From Plasmodiophora brassicae (taxonomy: Eukaryota): a stretch of DNA of 64,000 nucleotides. Below the pieces are notes generated by a model, which was given only the letters and a program-made list of their open reading frames with translations, was not told the DNA's origin and did not search any database. The stretch is taken from positions 1,178,001 to 1,242,000 of the forward strand of contig CP145410.1 in the NCBI GenBank assembly GCA_036867785.1, written 5' to 3'. Shown here in pieces: positions 1 to 10,789 of the stretch. Positions within the stretch are counted from its first letter, which is position 1. Every line of letters begins with the position of its first letter. Both the position numbers and the translations under genes were made by a program.

Positions 1-78
1 CGCAAGCACCTGCCGCGGTACCTGCTCCAGGTCGGTCGCGCTATACGCCAGGCGGCGGGGCACCTGTCTGCAACGGGC

Positions 79-109
<31 letters not shown>

Positions 110-2327
110 CGGTGGCCTGCTTGACGCAGGCCGTGGCCGTCGCCGACGCCGTCCTGTCCGGCAGCGACCGCACCCTTGTCGTGGACTGCCTCGTGGAGCT
201 CGCCGACGCGCACCTGTGTCGCCAGGAGGCGCCCGCCGCCGTCCGATCGCTGAAGCGCGCCGTCGCCGAGATCGACGCCATCCACGGGTGCAACTCCAGG
301 GACCTGCAGGTCGGTGCCACCTCGGACACGTCTAGCCGGTCGCTAACGCGGCGCGCGCGATGCCACAGATCGCCGACCTGATGACGAGGATGGCCCGGGC
401 GTTCGTGGCGAACAGCCAGGCAGACCTCGGGGCGCAGGCCTGGCGCCTGGCCCAGGCCCACTACCGTCGCCTGCTGTCGACGAACGACGGCACCGATGCG
501 ACCGACGAGCGCGTCCGCCTGCTGAACCGCCTCGCCGCCCTGCACGACGAGTTCCGCCCGCCGTCATCGTCGTCGACCTGGGCGACGTCCTGGCAGGTGG
601 CGACGTCCCGGCACGGGCACCTGCTCGAGACGATCGCGGCGGGGCGGGGCGCGGCGCGCGCCTCCCCCGACCCGATCGACGTGCTCGAACGCGTCGCCGA
701 GTACGCCCGCCAGGCGTACGGCGGGGCGCACGACGTCGCTGCCGGGGCCGGCATCGACCTCGCCAACGCGATCGGCCGCGCCGGCCGCGAGCTCGAGCGC
801 CTGCACATGCTGCGCCGCATCGACGACGCGTTCGACGGGCGCGGGTCGCCGCAGCACGTCCGCTGCTGGCTGGAGCAGGGCGCGTCGCTGGAGGCGCAGC
901 GCCTGTTCCTGGAGATGAAGGCGGTGCTGGAGAAGGCGCTGGCGCGGGTCGAGCGCGACTCGCGGGCGACGCCCGACGTCGACACCGTGTTCGGGCTCGT
1001 GGCCGGGCTGATCCGCGCCGGGCACCGCCTCGGCGAGTTCGACACCGCCGGGCGCGTCGTGGAGCGCGCCGTGCTCGTCTGGCAGCGCCTGTTCGGCGGC
1101 GGGCCGTCGTCGGCGGTCCCCGCCATGCTCCGTCGCCTGGCGGCCCAGTTCGCCGACCTGTCCCGGCACGACATGCAGCGGAGCGTCGTGATCGAGGCCT
1201 GGGAGCTGGCGCGCCTGCAGGCCATCGAGCAGACGCCGCACGCCGCCCGCACCGTCTACCGCGTCCGGGACCGGCAGGCGTTCATGGAATTCGCGCGGGT
1301 CACCGTCGCCTACGCCGACGTCCTCGGGCGGGAGGGGCGCACCGACCTCGCCACCGGCGCCTTGCGCGACGTCATCGGCATCCTCGACGAAGGCGCCGAC
1401 CGCGACGACGTCAGCGCCCTGCTGGTCGACGTGCGCACGTCGTTCGCCCACCAGCTGTACCGGCAGGGCGACGCCGACGGCGAACGCCGGGCGCTGATCG
1501 GCGTCCTGGAACTGCAGAAGCGGGGCGCGGGCCGGCTCGCGTCGGCGACGATGCCGATGACGCTGCTCCGGCTGGCGTCGGCGGAATCGCGTTCGGGCGA
1601 CGGCGACGCGAGCACCGCGTGCCTGACGGCGGCGCTGGCGCTGCTGAACGACGCGCTGCTGGTCGAGCGGTCCGACCCGTTGCGGCAGTTCGTGCGCGCC
1701 GCGCTGCAGTCGCAGTCGCGGGTCGGCGCGGGTCGGCCGCCGCGGCGCGGACGCCGCCTGGACCGCGTCGACCTGTACGGGATCCGGTTCGATGCGGATC
1801 GCGACCCGATGCCGTACGCGACGGCGATGGCACCGGCGCGTACGGCCCACGACCGCAACGGGAACGCGGTCGGCGTCGTCGTCGACGAGGAGGCGGCGGA
1901 AGCGGCGGCGAGCCGCGCGGCCCATCGCCGGCACCTGACGAACCAGCTGCGACGGTACGAGACGCGGCGGCCGCGTGTGCGCCACGACTACATCGCGCTG
2001 GCGCTCGTCGAGCTGGCCGACGCGTACACGAACGACCGGATCTACGCCAAGGGCCAGGCCTACCTGCAGCGGGCGCTGAAGATCATCGCGAAACGACGCC
2101 TGCCGATCGCCGTCCCGGGACGGATCGCGGCCGCGCTGGCGCTGGCCGAACACGGCGTCCAGGCGCCCGGGCACGACGCGACGCCTGACGTCGTTCCGGC
2201 GTTGAGGTCGGTCGGGCCCGCGCGCGAGTCGTCGGGCAAGGGCCCGTCGCCGTACGAGGCGCCCGCCCGCGGCAAGTCCCGATCGCGGTCCAGGACGCCG
2301 GCCAGTAATAGTACCATGTACCGATGA
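1..2327 (+). CDS. TPR-like alpha-helical repeat protein, 5' end outside the window
   Basis: Open frame from the window start, intron 310-368 (GT..CTAAC..CAG), then a long Ala/Leu-rich helical ORF with TPR-like segments (LALVELADAY...AYLQRALKI). Confidence 0.6.
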
Positions 2328-2463
2328 TAAACGTCCCGGCGGCGGATGGCACATGGCAACGCGCGCCGCTCTCGAATGTTCTGGAGCGCGAGCGGGGGGG
2401 CACCTGGACCAGGGCGCCACCCGTCGGCACGTCGCGCGCCAGTCCCCGTTGCTTCAGTTAATA

Positions 2464-3709
2464 ATGAAGAGCGCGATCGTCGGCGCCCTGCTGCTGCTGG
2501 CGGGCGTCGTCGCCCACATCGCCAATGCGCAGAGCGATATCGTCCCCCTGGATTGCATGCGTACGCGTCGCTCGTTCGTTCACCGGCCGCCCGTCCGTCA
2601 CTGACCGGTGCGGGGCGTCGTCGTCGTGCACAGAGAAGGGCAACTTCGACCCGGCCATGTGCATGTTCGCCGGCGAGTATTGCGACTTCCGCACCGACTT
2701 TGCCGACTTCAACGACCAGGCCATCCAGTACTACAAGTACGTCGACGACCCGAACCCGAACAATGCGGAATTCGTCGTGGAGAGCGGCGCGCCGGCGTAC
2801 GCGAACGGCACGCTGAACGTGTACCTGCACCCGCCGCGGCCGACGACGCCACCCGGGCGCGGCATCGCCTCCATCATCTCCACCACCCGGTTCATGCATT
2901 ACGTACGGGCGCTCGCGTTCGTATTCGCCGGTGTGCTGACGGCCCCCGATCGAACAGGGCGTCTTCGAGGTGACGCTGGAGCAGACGGGCCACCCGGGCG
3001 TCGTCACGACCTTCATCTCGTACTCCAACGACAAGGACGAGATCGACCTGGAGATCACGGGCGCCGACCACAACAACACGCAGGCGAACTGGTACTACCG
3101 CGGCATCCAGGACAACAACGAGTTCGGTAGGGCAGACGGGTGCGGGCGCCGTCGCCAGGCGCACTCTGACCGGCGCGTCGCTCGGCAGGGGCGTCTGTCA
3201 ACGGGTTCGTGGGGCACACCAAGGAGGACAACGCGCTGATCCCGCACCGGTACACGATGAACTGGACGGAGAACGAGATCACGTGGTCGATCAACGGCGC
3301 CCTGATGCACAAGGTGACCCGCGCGAACAAGACCGCCCGGTTCCCGTCGTCGCCGTCGCGGATCTCGTTCGGCGTCTGGCAGGCGCAGAACGGCAGCGTC
3401 TGGGCGGGCAACGCCACCATCACCGACTGGACCGCCCCGATCGTCGCCCGCTTCTACAACATGTCCGTCTCCTGGTACGTAAGCGCATGCGCGTCGTGGC
3501 GACCAGGCCCCCCTGTGCGGGCGTTTGGGTTCGTGACACTGACAACGCGCACACACAGCCGCGCCGGTCCACATGGGGGGACGCCCGCCCCGCCAACGCA
3601 TCCGCCCACCGGGTACAACCCGGATGCCGTCTTCGCCACGTCGCCAGCGACGCGCCCTGTCGTTCCCGCCCTGGTCATCGCCCTGGTCGTCATCGTCGCC
3701 CTCTGGTGA
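2464..3709 (+). CDS. Secreted, probably GPI/TM-anchored glycoside hydrolase family 16 (Crh-like), multi-exon
   Basis: Signal peptide MKSAIVGALLLLAG; GH16 catalytic motif DEIDLEITG; HRYTMNWTENEITWSING; hydrophobic C-terminus; about 4 short introns. Confidence 0.85.
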
Positions 3710-3818
3710 TCACCGGTTGCGTCTGCCAGGTCCCCCTGCATCGGTACCCACGCGCACGTGATCCCAACCAGGGCGCGGTGTCGTCGTACAACGTCTCGGT
3801 TTATCAGGAACAGGTCCG

Positions 3819-5045
3819 TCAGTAGGCATAGTACCCGGGAACGGCGCCGTAAACGTACGGCGCCGGCGCCGCATACATCGGGGCGCCATACGGCACGCCA
3901 ATGGCCGCCGTCGCATGCAGGCGATTGTCGTTCACGTTGTTGTCGAACGCCGTCGTGGTCGCCGCCGACGACCGCGTCGCGGCGCTGTTCGCGTTGCCAA
4001 CGTCGGCCCGGCGGTCGTAGCCGGCGGCGCTGCTGCTGTACTGGGTCCCGCTGCTAACGCCCCCGGGCAGGCCGGCGCCGATCACGACGGACGACCCGCG
4101 GGCGCCCTTGGCGTACTGGCTGTCCAGCAGGTTGCTGTGCCCGGCCGAATCGTACAGGCTCTGCGCGCTGTCGGCGTGGTCGAGCGCGCTGCCGGCCGAC
4201 GCCACATGCGACCGCTGGTCGGTGCTGCCGTGCGACCCGCCGCCGCCGCCAAAGATGCTGGCCGTGTCCGACGCCGCCTGGTCGACGAGGCGCGACCTGC
4301 CCGCCTGGTGGACGTCGTTGGCGACATTGCTGGCGCCGCGCCGCGCGTACTTGCTGAGCCGGCCGCGGTTCAGCACGGCCGAGTACGCGTCCTGCGACTC
4401 GCCGGCGCTGCCGACGCCGCCCAGGCCCTGGCCGAGCACCGCCCGGCTGTACGAGGCGCGGTTCACCGCGCCCTGGTCGAACACCTGGTCGCTGTTCGCC
4501 GAGTTCACCAGCGACTGGCCCAGGTGGGCGGCGCTGCCGCGCGCCGCTTGGTCGTTCTGGAACAGCGACTTGGCCGACCGGCCGAACGACGCCCCGTACG
4601 GGCCGTTCAGCGCGACGCCCGTGTCCAGGGCCGCGTTCCGGACGGCGGAATCGCGGGCGGTTCGCGACGATCCCTGGTGCTGGACGACGTCGCCCGCCGC
4701 GCTGGACAGCAGGGCGCCTCGGTCGAAGTTGGCCGACAGCGCCCGGCTGTTCGTCCCGGTGCTGCCGGCGCCGCCGAGGCCGGCAACGCCAATCTCGGCC
4801 GTGTTGAACGCGTTCTGCGCCACGTTGGCGCGGTCGTACGCCTGCGCCCGGTTCTCGTTGGTCGCCTGGGCGACGTGCCCGTCGGTGCCGGTGCTGAACC
4901 CGCGGTCGAACACGTTGGACGACGCCTGCTTCCGGTTGCCTGCCGACCCGCCGTACGGCAGGATGACGTGCCCGACGGACGCGTGCTCCAGCATGACGGC
5001 GACGACGAGTACGACGACCCGTATGAGCTTTGTCAGGTCCCCCAT
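3819..5045 (-). CDS. Secreted Gly/Ala/Ser-rich protein (408 aa) with 59-aa periodicity and a Tyr/Pro-rich tail
   Basis: Intronless ORF from ATG 5045; hydrophobic leader LIRVVVLVVAVML; no Cys or Trp; periodic Gly-rich turns. Confidence 0.75.
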   Translation of the reverse strand: MGDLTKLIRVVVLVVAVMLEHASVGHVILPYGGSAGNRKQASSNVFDRGFSTGTDGHVAQATNENRAQAYDRANVAQNAFNTAEIGVAGLGGAGSTGTNSRALSANFDRGALLSSAAGDVVQHQGSSRTARDSAVRNAALDTGVALNGPYGASFGRSAKSLFQNDQAARGSAAHLGQSLVNSANSDQVFDQGAVNRASYSRAVLGQGLGGVGSAGESQDAYSAVLNRGRLSKYARRGASNVANDVHQAGRSRLVDQAASDTASIFGGGGGSHGSTDQRSHVASAGSALDHADSAQSLYDSAGHSNLLDSQYAKGARGSSVVIGAGLPGGVSSGTQYSSSAAGYDRRADVGNANSAATRSSAATTTAFDNNVNDNRLHATAAIGVPYGAPMYAAPAPYVYGAVPGYYAY

Positions 5046-5192
5046 GCGGCGAGGAACGGCGATAGGATACAGGTGTGACCAGCGGAGAGCGCATCGCGCG
5101 CGCGGGAACCCCTCGGCCGTCTTCCGGTCGACAGAAATATCGGCCTTGTGGTCGGAAACGGGCGGCCGATCCGGTCCACACGCCCGCGCGCC

Positions 5193-5211
5193 ACACACAC
5201 ACACACACACA
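5193..5211. repeat. (AC)n microsatellite
   Basis: About 9 AC units upstream of the secreted-protein gene. Confidence 0.85.
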
Positions 5212-5275
5212 GACGAGACCAGGTGGGCCGATGCGGTGTTGATTAGGCATAGTTCACACAGGGCAGGGGGGCGCC

Positions 5276-5979
5276 CTACGCCGACTTGGTCGCGTTGATG
5301 TGGAATACACCTGACAGGCAGACGCGCGTCAGGGCGCGCGGCCGTACCGTATACGTTTGCACACAGACCCGAACGTACACTGCGGTATCTGGTCGATCTC
5401 GGCGGTGACGATGGCGTCCACGCCCATGGATCGGAGCGCGCCGCGAATCAGGCCCCGTGTGAACGCGGCAAACGCCTGCGCGGACGCCTGCGCCACACGT
5501 TCGTCGTCGTGGGCGATGTACTGCAGCCAGCGAAGGTTGTTGTCCTGCACGGCGAAGATGCCCGCGTTGTTCGTGCGCAACTGGGGGGGTCGGATGGGCA
5601 CACGCCCACACGTTAGAGCATACCGCGTGACGACCGGTCGGCGCATCGTTCGGCTTACCCTGTCGGCCGTCTTGTTAAACAGGGCGTTCCATATCTCCTT
5701 GCAGAGGAACTTCAGCACGTCCAGCTGCGTATTGAACCGCGCCTGCCGAGCCAAGGCGCAATCAGGGCGTGGACCAGCAGCGGACGACGGCAACGGGGCG
5801 ATTACGCGCTCCCGAATGGCACGCTCGGCGAACCGCACGCCAACGCTGCTGCCGATGGCGTCCAGTCGGTCCTCGCTGGACGGCCGTCGGACCATCTCGA
5901 CCAGCAGCAGGTCGAGCGACGACCGCGCGATCAGGTCGGACGCCGCGGACGTCGCCGCCGTCGTCGTCGTCGTCGCCAT
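5276..5979 (-). CDS. TRAPPC6: TRAPP complex subunit 6 (Trs33), multi-exon
   Basis: RLDAIGSSVGVRFAER, LDVLKFLCKEIWNALFNK, LRTNNAGIF, FTRGLIRGALRSMG. Confidence 0.9.
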
Positions 5980-6136
5980 CCGCACGATGCGCCGCCGCCG
6001 CGGAATCTCGCGCGGCTCGGCCGCCGCCGACGGGCGACGACAGGCGATGATAGTAGGCACGACGGCTGGTGGGAAACACAGGCACGTCCAGTGATGGTTT
6101 TATAGTCTGTTTGGGGGATCGCGAGCGGTCCCACAA

Positions 6137-9100
6137 TCAAGACAGATCCATGGGCTGAGCCAGATGAGTGGCAACGTCTGGATCGGGTGACCGTGGCGAC
6201 GACGACGACAACGGCAGCAGCAGGGCGTCCCGTTCCGCGCCGGTCGGTTCCGGGGGCGGGGACGGCGCCCCACTCGCCGCCATATCGAGCTCGGAGACCT
6301 CCATGGGTGCCGGGACGCGGAACATGGCGGGTATCTCGTCCGGCTTGTCGAGGAACGCCGGCTGCTTCTCCCACCAGGCCGCGAAACGCGCCTTGAGCCT
6401 GCCGTACCGGATGCGGCGGGTCGTTGGCCGACGACGGTAGAACATGTCCTCGGTGTCTTCAATGTAGTACGTCTTGAACGTACGACGGCAGATCTTGCTC
6501 TCGAGGGCATTGATCGTGACGGTTGCGTCAGGCGATGGACGGCGCTGCTGGGCGCGTCGCAGGTTCCTTCGCAGGAACGGGTTCGTACCTGACGACAGCA
6601 GGTCGGAGCGGGTCGACAAATAACGATCCAGGTACTGCTCCCAGGCGGCGCTGGATGGCTTCGCCTCCGCCGACCCGACGTTCTCCAGGAAAGCGATGCC
6701 CATTTCGTTCGAGTCCTGCACAAATCAGAGTCAGGGACGGGCCGACACGACGCAGACGACGACAGGCGCGACCTTGAAGAATTCGATTTGAATACAGTGG
6801 TCGTCCTCGTTGAGGAGGCTGGAGCAATTCATCAGATACATGCGCGCCAGCAATGCCGATCGCTCCAGAGGATCGTCGCCGGCGGCGACCGATTTGTCAA
6901 GCGCCCGCGAGTGCTCGTAGCCGTACAGGCCGATCAGCTTCTGACTGAGCGCAGACCCAGCAACCGTCTGCATTTGCTTGACGATGGCCGCGACAAGCTT
7001 ATCGATGGTGAACATTGGGTACGACTTGGCACCGACGAGCGCGCGCAGGTTGTCCTCGTACGTCACCTGGTCGACCTGGTTGTCCAACAGTTTGTACACC
7101 AGTTCCTTGAATTGCTGGTAGACAGATTCCCCGTCCGGCTTCGCAAGAGCGAGGTCGCGACAGGTCTTCCATCTGGAATACAAGAACTGATGGAGGCGGA
7201 AGAACACATAGAACGACAGGTTTCCAAAGAACAGATTCGACTCGCGGGTATGCCGTCGCATAGGGTTAATCGTTTCCTCCAGCGCCCATGCGCTCATGGA
7301 CAGTCGAACCGGACGCGTAGAAGCCTGTGCAACAGACCGTAAATACAATGGGATCCACAGCTGTCGATGTAACCTACATCAGGGCCGTCGAGCAGGTCAG
7401 ACTTGTCAGTGGCGTTCAAGAAATGGAGGACGAAACCGTTCCAGAACGAGAGCAATTGAGAGCGATCCTCATCCGGAAGATGATTGATGCACCTCTCGAT
7501 TAGGTCCAGAAGTTCAGGGTGAACTGCTTGATCGTCAAGCGAGAAGTTCATGCAGTAATTGTACAAAGAAGGCTGGAGGCTGGCGTTCGTAAACACCCCC
7601 TTCTCCTCAGCACCCTCCGCCATTTTCTCGCACAGGTCCTTCAGTTCTGCGATCAAGAATTTGGACGACAGACGCTTCTTCTCCTCTGACTTGAACGTAA
7701 AGCTTCTGTGATCAAGGGAGCGGTGATAATTGGCCTTGACGACATCCTGCCATGTCTTCTTCATGTTCTCCCGGGCTCTCCTCCACTCGACATCCTTCTG
7801 CTTCAGGCGCTTCAGGATAACCGGTATTGCAGTGGATGGGTTCAGACGCAACAAGCGGATGATATCGTACCTGACATATTGCATGTAAGACAGTGCGGAC
7901 ACGTATACGACAATGCGACAACTTACCATGCATCACCGTAGATGCGAGCCATTGCGCGAATATGCAGAATGTCGACAGAGTTGTCGAGCTTGAATGCAGA
8001 AGCTTGCTCCAATGTCAAGACTTCAATCTTGTCGCATAACGGCTTCGCAATGGTTAGACCAGCTGAGGAGCTATGGCAAGGCGGCCACGAACCTGTAGTA
8101 CGCGAATCGCTGCGGCGTTATTCTCGATCATCATGTCGATTTCGTACCGCTCATCTTCCACTTTGAAGAGTGCCTCCTCGTACTGGTTCTTACGAGACGA
8201 CTTGAAGCTCTGATCTTCAGTCCCAGTAGGAATGGATATGCATGTGTCGTTGAGGACACTGTCTCCAAGAATAGAGCGCCCCGAACAAGGGGGACACGGG
8301 ATCTCCGCAGGAAGAAGTCGATAGGATGGGGTGACCTGCGTGCAGGTTGTGAAGTCGACCGACGAGACAAACGCGTAGAAGTTTGACCGCATGTGGGTCA
8401 TCAGTTGATTCTCCTCCCATTCGTTGTAGCCCAGAACTTCCTTGAACTTGATCGCGAACTCGGCGTATTTAGGATTCTTCAGAAACAGGTCATCAACAAG
8501 GGACATCAACTCGGCACGAGTGATGATGTTGCAAGAGAATAGATTCAACACGCGCATAAGTTGCACGTAGAGAGATCGAGGAACAATCATCTAAGGCAAC
8601 CGTTAGAGTGTTGTTACATGGTGTCCCCAATAACGAGCCATACTTTGATCTTTTCGAACAGCTGCATTTCCTTCTTCGAGTCTGGAGGATACGACACTGT
8701 CGCATACGGACCTGGCGGAATCATCCCTCCAATGTTGCCAGATATTCGCCGGTTAGCCGTCGGCAGACCTGTAGCAGCGTCAGCGAAGTGCATTGTGACG
8801 ACGGAAGGCATCAGACCTGGGGCACTCATGGTGGACGAGGCAATTGGGGACGTCCCGGCACGGACGGGAGGGGGCGGCGGAACCCCAATGGGACCAGAAT
8901 CCATTCGACGAACACCGAGCGGCGGCACTGAACTCGTACCACCAGGTTCCTCTTTTCGTGGGCGCTTCTTCTTCTGTTGCTTAGCGACACCTGCGGGAAG
9001 TGCTCCACTAGCTTCTGGGGGCAGGAAATAATTGAAGTCATCCAGCAAGTCGGGATGCCCGCGGAACAAGTTCTGGACTTTAGCCTTGACCTGTTCGATG

Positions 9101-9600
9101 GCAGTCTCGGTTGTCCGCTTCTCCTGATACGCATGGAGAATCTCCAGAAACTCTTCGTAGACTTCGGGTCGCGACTCGAAACGTTGCTGTTAGCGTCGAT
9201 TGTCAGCACTCCATACAGCCCAAGTAAGACGCACTGGCTTACCTTGATCTTAGCGACGTACTTAACAGCGTGATTGAACTCAACGGTTGGCTTCTGTTGT
9301 GGCGGTTCAGGTGGCGGGACTGTTGGATCCGTGATCTTGTATCCCGGAGGCAGGAACTGGTTGAACCCAAGAATAAGTTCACGGTGGCCCTGGAACAAGG
9401 TAGTGACTCGCTTGATAACGCCCTCGGTGTTTATGGTCTGCGCCTTGAACTCTTTCATGATCTCAAGGAACTGGTTGTAGACGTTTGGCCGATCATAGAA
9501 CTTCTTCTTCACTTTCTCCAGGTACCCGAGAGCGTCCTTGACTTTCGGCATCTCCCCAGCTGGCTGGCCCACGCCATCACCGACTTGCTGTGCCTGAGGT

Positions 9601-9636
<36 letters not shown>

Positions 9637-10403
9637 GATTGCTGCGGCAGCATCATGGGCTGTGGCCCAGGTTGCCCTGATTGAGGTGGGACCGGGACCT
9701 TTGGTGCTCCCATAGGAGACGGGCCGCCCATCGGTTGCATTAATGTCGGTGGAGCACCCGCCTGTTGCATGGACTGTATCGGCCCAGGTCCAGATAGTTG
9801 AGAGACTTGTGCAGGAGGCGGTTGCGATGGCCCGGTTTGGAACTGCGGCGAAATGCGCCCAACTTGAGGCGCCTGCGGCGGACGCGGGATGTGACCTTGC
9901 AGGATGGCTCCTCGTCCCGTTTGCTGCATCAACCCACCCCGCATCATCATCGAAGGTGGAGGCCCGCCTCGACTCGGTCCTGTAGCACCCACCACGGTGC
10001 GCTGCATCACTGGCCCAGGAACGATGCCGCCCTGGACGACATTGCCGGGGCCGAACTGTCCCGGCACACCTTGTTGCTGCTGGATGACGGCGCCCAGCCC
10101 TCGCCCTCGACCTGCTTCATCGCCGAACATAGCTCGAGAATTTGGTTGAGGCGGCGGTGCCGCGCGGGCTCTGTTGATGGCCCCGAATGCGGCGGCCTGC
10201 TGGGGCGTGCTCTGCTGGAATACCGGCGGCTGGTGTGGTGGTGGAGGTGGTGGCACATTCCCACCAACAAACATCTGCGTTGACGCAGGTGGTCCGGGCG
10301 GTTGCGATGGGGGAGGCATGGCCGACGGTGTCGGCGGCGACGTCGACTGCTGTGACTGCGCTGACGGCCCCTCTTCGACGCCATCCGGTAGTCCCCTCTT
10401 CAT
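6137..10403 (-). CDS. SIN3: Sin3 co-repressor (PAH1-3, HDAC-interaction domain, Sin3 C-terminal domain), multi-exon
   Basis: PAH1 [13 protein letters not shown]...[20 protein letters not shown]2 [25 protein letters not shown]...[26 protein letters not shown]; low-complexity Gln/Pro N-terminus. Confidence 0.95.
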
Positions 10404-10789
10404 GGGCGGCGCACCGGACGGCGACGGTTCGTCTCCAACGCCTTCCGCCGTCGTGGTGACGCTGAACTGGGGAACGCAGATAAACAAGTGGCCGTGCCAC
10501 TCAGTTGCAAGTCCGGACTAGAATCACCCCGCCGAACGCAACGCCCATAAAAACTGACAGCCCTCCCGCCGCAGTCCGCAACAAGGGCCCACGCCGCGGC
10601 CGCCTACATAACGTACAAACAGCTCCCGCATCATCGGCTGACATCAACCAGCGGCACAGTCGAGTTCGGCAAATGACGCGAGTCTAATGTAATTGCCAAA
10701 TTCAAATAGAGCCGTCGCAGAGAAAGCCGCGCCCGATAAACGATAGGTTATTAATACAGTGTAGAGAAAAAAGCATACGTAAGAACGTG

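Follow-up and report, generated by a model that had tools for sequence, protein, structure and literature searches.

What kind of protein keeps its glycine-rich turns exactly 59 residues apart over six consecutive intervals, and is it encoded by a gene of its own? This question is raised by positions 3819–5045, minus strand, of a 64,000-nucleotide stretch of the Plasmodiophora brassicae genome (assembly GCA_036867785.1, contig CP145410.1, positions 1,178,001 to 1,242,000 of the forward strand; in the following the window), where an open reading frame (ORF) encodes a protein of 408 residues, here called P0001. A preliminary description of this stretch had read P0001 as a secreted protein possibly built from six very long strands or rods, a giant β-ribbon. 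Our analysis indicates that P0001 is a genuine, transcribed, stand-alone and intronless P. brassicae gene, that it belongs to a tiny family whose named members are all linked to plasmodiophorids, and that its product would be a structural or matrix protein in an extracellular wall or coat, a reading to which we assign a probability of roughly 40 %.

Since the locus has a GC content of about 70 %, four long ORFs of about 400 codons overlap at this position and the frame had to be settled. Minus-strand translation of 3819–5045 yields 408 residues followed by a stop codon (3819–3821), and the frame stays open back to 5210 without any further upstream ATG. Among the overlapping ORFs only this frame, the one chosen in the preliminary description, displays a coding pattern in which the GC content of the first codon position exceeds that of the second while the third position (GC3) is highest (0.672/0.555/0.936), with GC3 values between 0.87 and 1.0 in all thirteen 30-codon blocks. 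Furthermore, the homologous ORF at locus L001, whose GC content is 0.558, contains no stop in 340 codons, compared with 5 to 12 stops in the other five frames.

Transcription was examined on assembled contigs of sequencing runs, whose depth cannot rank genes; none of the runs found to contain the gene is recorded as RNA. In the runs X2, X6 and X13, however, the contigs are spliced, with GT..AG joints in the plus-strand neighbour, a glycoside hydrolase family 16 (GH16) gene, and CT..AC joints in the minus-strand gene upstream, and therefore derive from RNA. Two of them, X6 record 16 and X13 record 10, extend from 3781 and 3784, respectively, across the entire ORF without an internal joint before they splice at 5308/5377; consequently, the ORF is transcribed and intronless, and the introns in the RNA contigs covering P0001 point to the minus strand. 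Expression of this strand, on which the preliminary description had depended, is thus borne out by spliced contigs spanning the whole ORF. For the four runs, six deviations from the window sequence are listed, all of them at 5458–6315 and none inside the P0001 ORF. The contig ends at 3781 and 3784 come from two studies, delimit a short 3′ untranslated stretch (3781–3818, minus strand) and give a weak hint that the transcript ends near these positions.

The splice just mentioned leads to the question of where the protein begins. A public model of 625 residues (P0012) uses the GT..AG intron 5309–5376 (minus strand), which connects the last exon of TRAPPC6B to the leader in front of the P0001 ATG, and thereby fuses a TRAPP-domain protein to P0001, so that P0001 would merely form its C-terminal 408 residues. 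This model has some basis in the data, because the joint 5308/5377 was found in 4 of 4 runs, because its splicing deletes the TRAPPC6B stop codon (5329–5331), and because the frame then stays open from the splice site through the leader into the ATG. Run X1 contains in addition an alternative joint, 5308/5367, and one unspliced piece. The Pfam TRAPP domain covers residues 7–127 of P0012; whether the fused model or the unspliced exon is compared, the match runs to position 148 of the 154-position profile, and it does not distinguish the native TRAPPC6B C-terminus.

Against the fusion stands the leader itself (5046–5308, minus strand), which is open in frame but lacks a coding signature: over the 261 nucleotides 5046–5306 the GC content by codon position is 0.713/0.575/0.655, without the GC3 rise of the flanking coding parts (0.87–1.0). 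The leader would also have to be translated through its (GT)n run, which would be read as VCVCVC. This run is a perfect (CA)10/(GT)10 microsatellite at 5192–5211, 147 nucleotides 5′ of the P0001 ATG, detected with Tandem Repeats Finder (TRF); in the comparison of run X1 with the window the segment 5176–5220 was skipped as a repeat. Moreover, the paralogue and four further homologues possess a hydrophobic N-terminus of their own, in the L001 homologue a stop interrupts the frame 23 codons ahead of the ATG, and a separate public model of exactly 408 residues exists. Rolfe et al. (2016) describe overlapping untranslated regions in the compact P. brassicae genome and liken them to microsporidian mRNAs that carry sequence of more than one gene, which again argues against reading the joint as a protein fusion. 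From the leader without coding signature, the homologues with their own starts and this report we therefore conclude that translation of P0001 starts at 5045, and we regard the fused protein as very unlikely. The stand-alone gene corrects the public 625-residue model.

With the reading frame established, the internal order of the protein can be described. The first 25 residues (4971–5045, minus strand here and for all units below) resemble a signal peptide, with K6 and R9, the hydrophobic stretch VVVLVVAVML and the residues ASVG in front of HV; the n-, h- and c-regions and the cleavage site were judged by eye from the sequence. Broken into lines of 59 residues beginning at residue 30, the protein shows PYGG, GLGG, GPYG, GLGG, GGGGG, GLPGG and VPYG at the line starts. 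Unit 1 (residues 30–88, type A, 4782–4958) begins with PYGG; unit 2 (89–147, type B, 4605–4781) begins with GLGGAGS and contains an FDRG motif whose G110 is invariant in the family; unit 3 (148–206, type A, 4428–4604) begins with GPYG and contains FDQG, in which F189 and G192 do not vary among the members. They are followed by unit 4 (207–265, type B, 4251–4427, starting GLGGVGS), unit 5 (266–324, type A, 4074–4250, starting GGGGG) and unit 6 (325–383, type B, 3897–4073, starting GLPGG). The remaining residues 384–408 (3822–3896) form a tail with 7 Tyr and 5 Pro, which opens with VPYG like a seventh loop and whose sequence, APAPYVYGAVPGYYAY, contains YVY and YY.

The exact spacing of the turns reported in the preliminary description was reproduced by the translation and also holds statistically: the autocorrelation of the smoothed Gly density reaches 0.521, 0.508 and 0.482 at lags of 58, 59 and 60 and 0.41 at 118, compared with a maximum of 0.349 over 1000 shuffles. 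All eight prolines of P0001 (30, 149, 327, 385, 389, 394, 396 and 403) lie at loop starts or in the tail, and the segments between the turns are accordingly Pro-free, as had been claimed; the signal-peptide-like start and the Tyr/Pro tail were likewise found as described. At the level of similarity the period is doubled. The mean BLOSUM62 score at a shift of 118 is 0.281, whereas the maxima of 500 shuffles average −0.166 (standard deviation 0.060, largest value 0.104), which substantiates the proposed 118-residue super-repeat of alternate units. A shift of 59 alone gives −0.19 and lies within the null distribution of the 500 shuffles. Among the in-register pairs, 2–4, 2–6, 4–6 and 3–5 reach z values of 4.7, 5.9, 3.3 and 3.9, the three 118-residue units compared among themselves 3.9–5.5, and unit 1 is weakly similar to units 3 and 5 (z 0.4 and 1.7). 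When unit profiles including the homologues were compared, the pairs 1–2, 1–3, 1–4, 1–6, 2–4, 2–6, 3–5 and 3–6 were recovered in or near register, the odd-even near-register pairs among them (1–2, 1–4, 1–6 and 3–6) with probabilities of 14–73 %. In an alignment of the 118-residue units of P0001 and one homologue (A3) the positions G7, H28, D42 and S66 are invariant.

These relationships suggest that a 59-residue unit was doubled to an A+B unit of 118 residues, which would then have been triplicated. This event appears to be old, because TRF found no tandem DNA repeat inside the ORF (its only find being the (CA)10 run in the leader) and because the sole trace left in the DNA is one 25-nucleotide pair, 76 % alike and spaced by 354, which involves unit 4. 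The earlier statement that the register is not accompanied by an obvious DNA repeat is therefore correct. The composition is simple, with 18 % Ala, 14 % Gly and 13 % Ser (together about 45 %), 1.0 % Lys and 0.8 % Glu and a grand average of hydropathy (GRAVY) of −0.38. Cys, Trp and N-x-S/T sequons are absent from the mature protein.

An exhaustive HMMER search of 1,835,955,588 representative sequences (E ≤ 0.001) returned 11 matches, comprising the query, six collinear relatives of 211–392 residues and four long proteins with SRCR repeats. The latter match over 43–79 residues only and were set aside as spurious, since SRCR domains are Cys-rich and the P0001 family is Cys-free. The relatives are P0002 (E = 2e-83), a 47 % P. 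brassicae paralogue, P0003 (7e-34), P0004 (5e-22), P0005 (3e-12), P0006 (2e-11) and P0009 (6e-6). The P. brassicae sequences are deposited as the 625-residue model containing P0001 and as the cluster of the paralogue (hypothetical protein PBRA_007470, PBTT_06382); P0006 is named "hypothetical protein, partial [Beta vulgaris]", and the other members are records from metagenome or run assemblies. We infer that the Beta vulgaris record probably stems from contamination by a plasmodiophorid that infects roots. Further searches added no members: tblastn with five family members against the window gave no second copy, a word-index protein search with P0001 found only P0001 itself and one with the family profile only P0001 and P0005 (8000 candidates sharing most words scored in each case), and a metagenome scan with a three-row alignment (A2) retrieved only the source contig of P0004. 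On this contig, at 1376–1399 of L001, P0004 ends after unit 5 (GEISS, then a stop) where its close relative P0006 continues with GGEVSNGQQ; an overlooked intron could explain this early stop, as could a truncated allele at the end of the contig.

The family (P0001–P0006 and P0009) is characterised by six collinear units, Gly loops and motifs of the FDRG type, and the full-length P0002, P0003 and P0005 are collinear with P0001 over all six units (alignment A1). Furthermore, 7 of 7 are free of Cys and Trp, with 10–14 % Gly, 10–19 % Ala and GRAVY values of −0.26 to −0.98, and two of them are strongly charged (16–18 % Lys plus Arg). A hydrophobic N-terminal stretch is present in all five homologues with a complete or nearly complete N-terminus. 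In the literature searched, no description of the family was found and neither PBRA_007470 nor any of six accessions that belong to the fused model and the paralogue is mentioned, while supplementary tables (Schwelm 2015, Rolfe 2016, eLife 2025 secretome) may list the gene. The sequences are hence already public as hypothetical proteins, in one case as a mis-fused model, and it is the description of the family that is new. Its kind, a lineage-restricted secreted low-complexity repeat protein, is familiar; unusual are the fixed-length segments between variable hinges.

How far the 59-residue register is conserved was determined from the aligned columns of the seven loop starts. Successive loops are spaced by 62, 59, 59, 59, 59 and 58 residues in P0002, by 58, 65, 58, 65, 58 and 60 in P0003 and by 58, 64, 58, 66, 59 and 55 in P0005; complete intervals in the fragments measure 58–64, plus 72 in the first interval of P0009. 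The preliminary description had named variable spacing between the turns of homologues as an observation that would speak against its model, and the more distant homologues indeed vary (mostly 58–66). Insertions and deletions (indels), on the other hand, are concentrated at the loops: 26 of 29 events in the mature region lie inside nine-residue windows at the six loops, where 4.4 would be expected from the 15 % of the mature length that these windows occupy. These events are not independent of one another; at the level of distinct positions, 12 of 15 fall into loops. The three events outside the loops all occur in P0005. The claim of strict length conservation thus holds only for the paralogue and fails for the spacing in distant homologues; what survives is a weaker form, in which segments of fixed length alternate with loops of variable length. 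An exact 59 is a feature of the P. brassicae pair, and a fixed segment length between the loops a feature of the family as far as the alignment allows.

No known fold was recognized by sequence. The family profile, run against 177,635 distinct PDB chains, gave as its best match a formate dehydrogenase (E = 2.1 over 48 residues). An ESM Atlas query with P0001 reached a best score of 0.76 with 127 of 256 features (Hyr1), which is below hit level, and one with P0005 returned nothing usable. AlphaFold2 with the seven-row alignment yielded a mean predicted local distance difference test (pLDDT) value of 38.1 and a predicted template modelling score of 0.16, with long helices at 100–145, 151–201, 218–264 and 274–316 and pLDDT values around 70 at the N-terminal signal-like part only. 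For a six-row alignment of the 118-residue units the pLDDT was 50.8, with helices at 26–57 and 69–117. A two-copy complex prediction of residues 25–383 scored 0.00 with unfolded controls and has no bearing on self-assembly.

These data bear directly on the structure put forward in the preliminary description, six long antiparallel β-strands that assemble into a ribbon or amyloid-like polymer. A polar composition with abundant Gly, Ser, Asn, Gln and Tyr, equal segment lengths between the turns and the exclusion of indels from the segments would all suit such a ribbon. However, the hydrophobic-moment spectra of all six segments, computed for the family mean and for P0001, show no excess at 160–180° (z at 170° between −1.6 and +0.6) and hence no alternation of the kind expected for strands. 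Neither AlphaFold2 model contains a strand of three or more residues, although at low confidence, and 18 % Ala together with Arg, Asp and Gln is rather typical of helices. We know of no stable design with single strands of about 50 residues. The β-ribbon thus finds no support in these analyses and is very unlikely in our estimate. Helical or conditionally folding rods with flexible Gly hinges are a better guess from the models; in the family mean only the segment 152–204 reaches a helical moment with z of 2.3, the other segments lie between −1.3 and +0.6, and the summed spectrum peaks at 75–80°. P0001 may also be plainly disordered.

Several known systems resemble such an arrangement in part. 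Spectrin repeats (about 106 residues) and apolipophorin-type bundles consist of matched long helices and short turns and retain their length while the sequence drifts, and P0001 can be likened to them by its matched-length putative helices, short turns and kept repeat length; unlike them, it has no PDB sequence match, no clear amphipathic or heptad signal and no confident fold. With silk-like fibroins and repeat proteins of fungal walls such as Hyr1 it shares the predicted secretion, the low complexity and the high content of Ala, Gly and Ser, but its repeats are long, old and diverged instead of short tandem units. The motifs YVY and YY of the tail recur in Tyr-rich cross-linked wall proteins, namely extensins with their YXY motif and coccidian oocyst-wall precursors, which are cross-linked via di- or isodityrosine. 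In P0001, by contrast, the Tyr richness is limited to the last 25 residues and is missing in the other members.

Taken together, we favour a structural or matrix role outside the cell because of the putative export signal, the conserved architecture, the composition rich in Ala, Gly and Ser and the length-locked modules; no retention or anchor signal was seen by eye. Each unit comprises a flexible Gly-rich hinge, followed by about 50 Pro-free residues in which hardly any indel is tolerated. The segments would act as rods of equal length, most likely helical or conditionally folding, and we infer that the protein would act in a wall or coat, most probably that of the resting spore or cyst, with the Tyr/Pro tail as a possible cross-linking end. 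The preliminary description had offered a spore wall, an adhesive or an extrusome as candidate sites of action and di-Tyr cross-linking through the tail, all of which are conjectural. In a more specific and clearly speculative version, which we consider rather improbable, the family would be an invention of the plasmodiophorids and P0001 a modular ruler whose six equally long rods fold back at the Gly hinges into a block with a set dimension; such blocks would polymerise to form a layer in the resting-spore wall or the Rohr/Stachel apparatus with which the zoospore cyst penetrates, and the tail would lock the lattice through oxidative cross-links.

Two other functions have to be weighed against this structural role. 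P0001 could be a secreted, intrinsically disordered effector, released by the plasmodium into the host cytoplasm, with the Gly hinges and polar segments as flexible binding regions. The signal-peptide-like start, the absence of Cys, which makes disulfides unnecessary in the reducing host cytoplasm, the very low AlphaFold2 confidence and the transcription in runs whose labels name organisms other than organism A are all compatible with this idea. A TurboID preprint moreover reports a low-complexity, disordered P. brassicae candidate captured in the host, which is a different protein (CEO97827). However, collinearity, motifs and segment lengths are kept across several organisms, which is unusual for host-specific effectors, and the mean charge and hydropathy of the mature protein class it as "folded" relative to the Uversky boundary (0.458 vs 0.416). 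According to Schwelm et al. (2015), most predicted secreted proteins are not common to P. brassicae and Spongospora; a family shared across organisms therefore fits core biology better than a host-specific effector. Also the silence of the searched literature on the accessions of the paralogue and the fused model does not favour an effector, which we consider unlikely on balance.

Alternatively, P0001 could be a secreted protectant akin to hydrophilins and group 3 LEA proteins, disordered and water-holding, helical on drying, and protecting the resting spore or its wall without bearing load. P. brassicae resting spores survive for years in soil, so that a tie to a dormant, stress-resistant stage is plausible, and the family resembles these proteins in being hydrophilic, repeat-built, free of Cys and Trp in all members, above 10 % in Gly, strongly charged in two cases and predicted to be helical at low confidence. 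In contrast to group 3 LEA proteins the repeat measures 59 or 118 residues and not 11, and P0001 carries a signal-peptide-like start and hardly any Lys and Glu; an 11-residue periodicity was not seen, though none was sought. In Pfam-A, which includes the LEA families (among them LEA_4, PF02987, which we take to be the group 3 family), hmmscan found no family at E ≤ 10 for P0001; across the seven members five scattered single-member hits with E between 0.015 and 0.2 appeared, none of them common and none a LEA family at E ≤ 1. Strict segment lengths would be unexpected for a pure protectant and P0001 is only mildly hydrophilic, so that this role, too, seems doubtful to us.

A number of observations weigh against the structural or matrix role itself. 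Signal-peptide cleavage depends on a reading by eye. The AlphaFold2 confidence is so low that "helical" is only a hint, the amphipathic moment at 100° gives no clear signal (z −1.4 to +2.3), and Ser, Gly, Asn and Asp, which make up about 39 % of the residues, are as compatible with disorder as with rods. The alignment rows are few (seven, three of them fragments), and the preference of MAFFT for placing gaps in Gly-rich, poorly aligned stretches inflates the bias of indels towards the loops. The Tyr/Pro tail is specific to P0001 and absent from every homologue that reaches the C-terminus. Finally, the RNA contigs link P0001 to the upstream TRAPPC6B exons and do not mark a transcription start of its own.

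The surroundings of the gene add some context. The convergent GH16 gene (about 2346–3802, plus strand; Pfam PF00722 on two exon pieces) has GT..AG introns at 2561–2633, 2903–2957, 3126–3187 and 3474–3557 according to the RNA contigs and encodes a hydrophobic C-terminal stretch. Its contigs end at 3773–3802 and those of P0001 start at 3781–3784, so that the 3′ ends of both genes abut or overlap. GH16 enzymes are known for work on walls, and the adjacency is weak evidence pointing to a wall role. Positions 1–6000 of the window constitute a GC-rich block (0.67–0.75), in which GC3 amounts to 0.82–0.95 in the ORF 360–2327, the GH16 part 3209–3709, P0001 and the TRAPPC6B ORF 5329–6060; it is 0.71 in the GH16 piece 2525–3130, whose ORF runs into introns, and 0.63–0.73 in genes farther on. 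High GC3 is thus a property of a regional compositional domain and not of P0001 alone. The ORF 360–2327 (plus strand, 655 residues, GC3 0.945) is rich in Ala, Arg and Leu, has no Pfam match at E ≤ 0.01 and is possibly a helical-repeat protein. At 5977–6203 all four runs contain a joint that leaves out 225 bases; five other letters (GTTGT) stand at the junction, and the shorter side comprises only 21 letters. Many loose contig ends cluster at 5951–5977 and 6223. A low-complexity coding repeat with divergent assembly, or else a length variant, may account for this pattern. Farther upstream on the minus strand, the adjacent ORF pieces 6137–7348 and 8826–10487 match the C-terminal domain of Sin3a. 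A Gln/Pro-rich ORF lying still farther upstream has PAH-type-like motifs, and all these pieces together look like a multi-exon Sin3 co-repressor gene.

Plasmodiophorids cause clubroot and powdery scab and transmit rhizomania, yet they are poorly known at the molecular level, and to our knowledge the proteins of their resting-spore wall and penetration apparatus have not been named. A predicted secreted family that is conserved across the group, with fixed-length modules and no relatives elsewhere, is a reasonable candidate for a durable wall or penetration structure, and it might serve as a marker or antigen specific to the lineage. Should P0001 prove to be an effector or a filler without order, the finding would reduce to an annotated orphan family. 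If the ruler were true, it would provide a first molecular handle on the structure behind the decades-long survival of clubroot in soil or its entry into the host.

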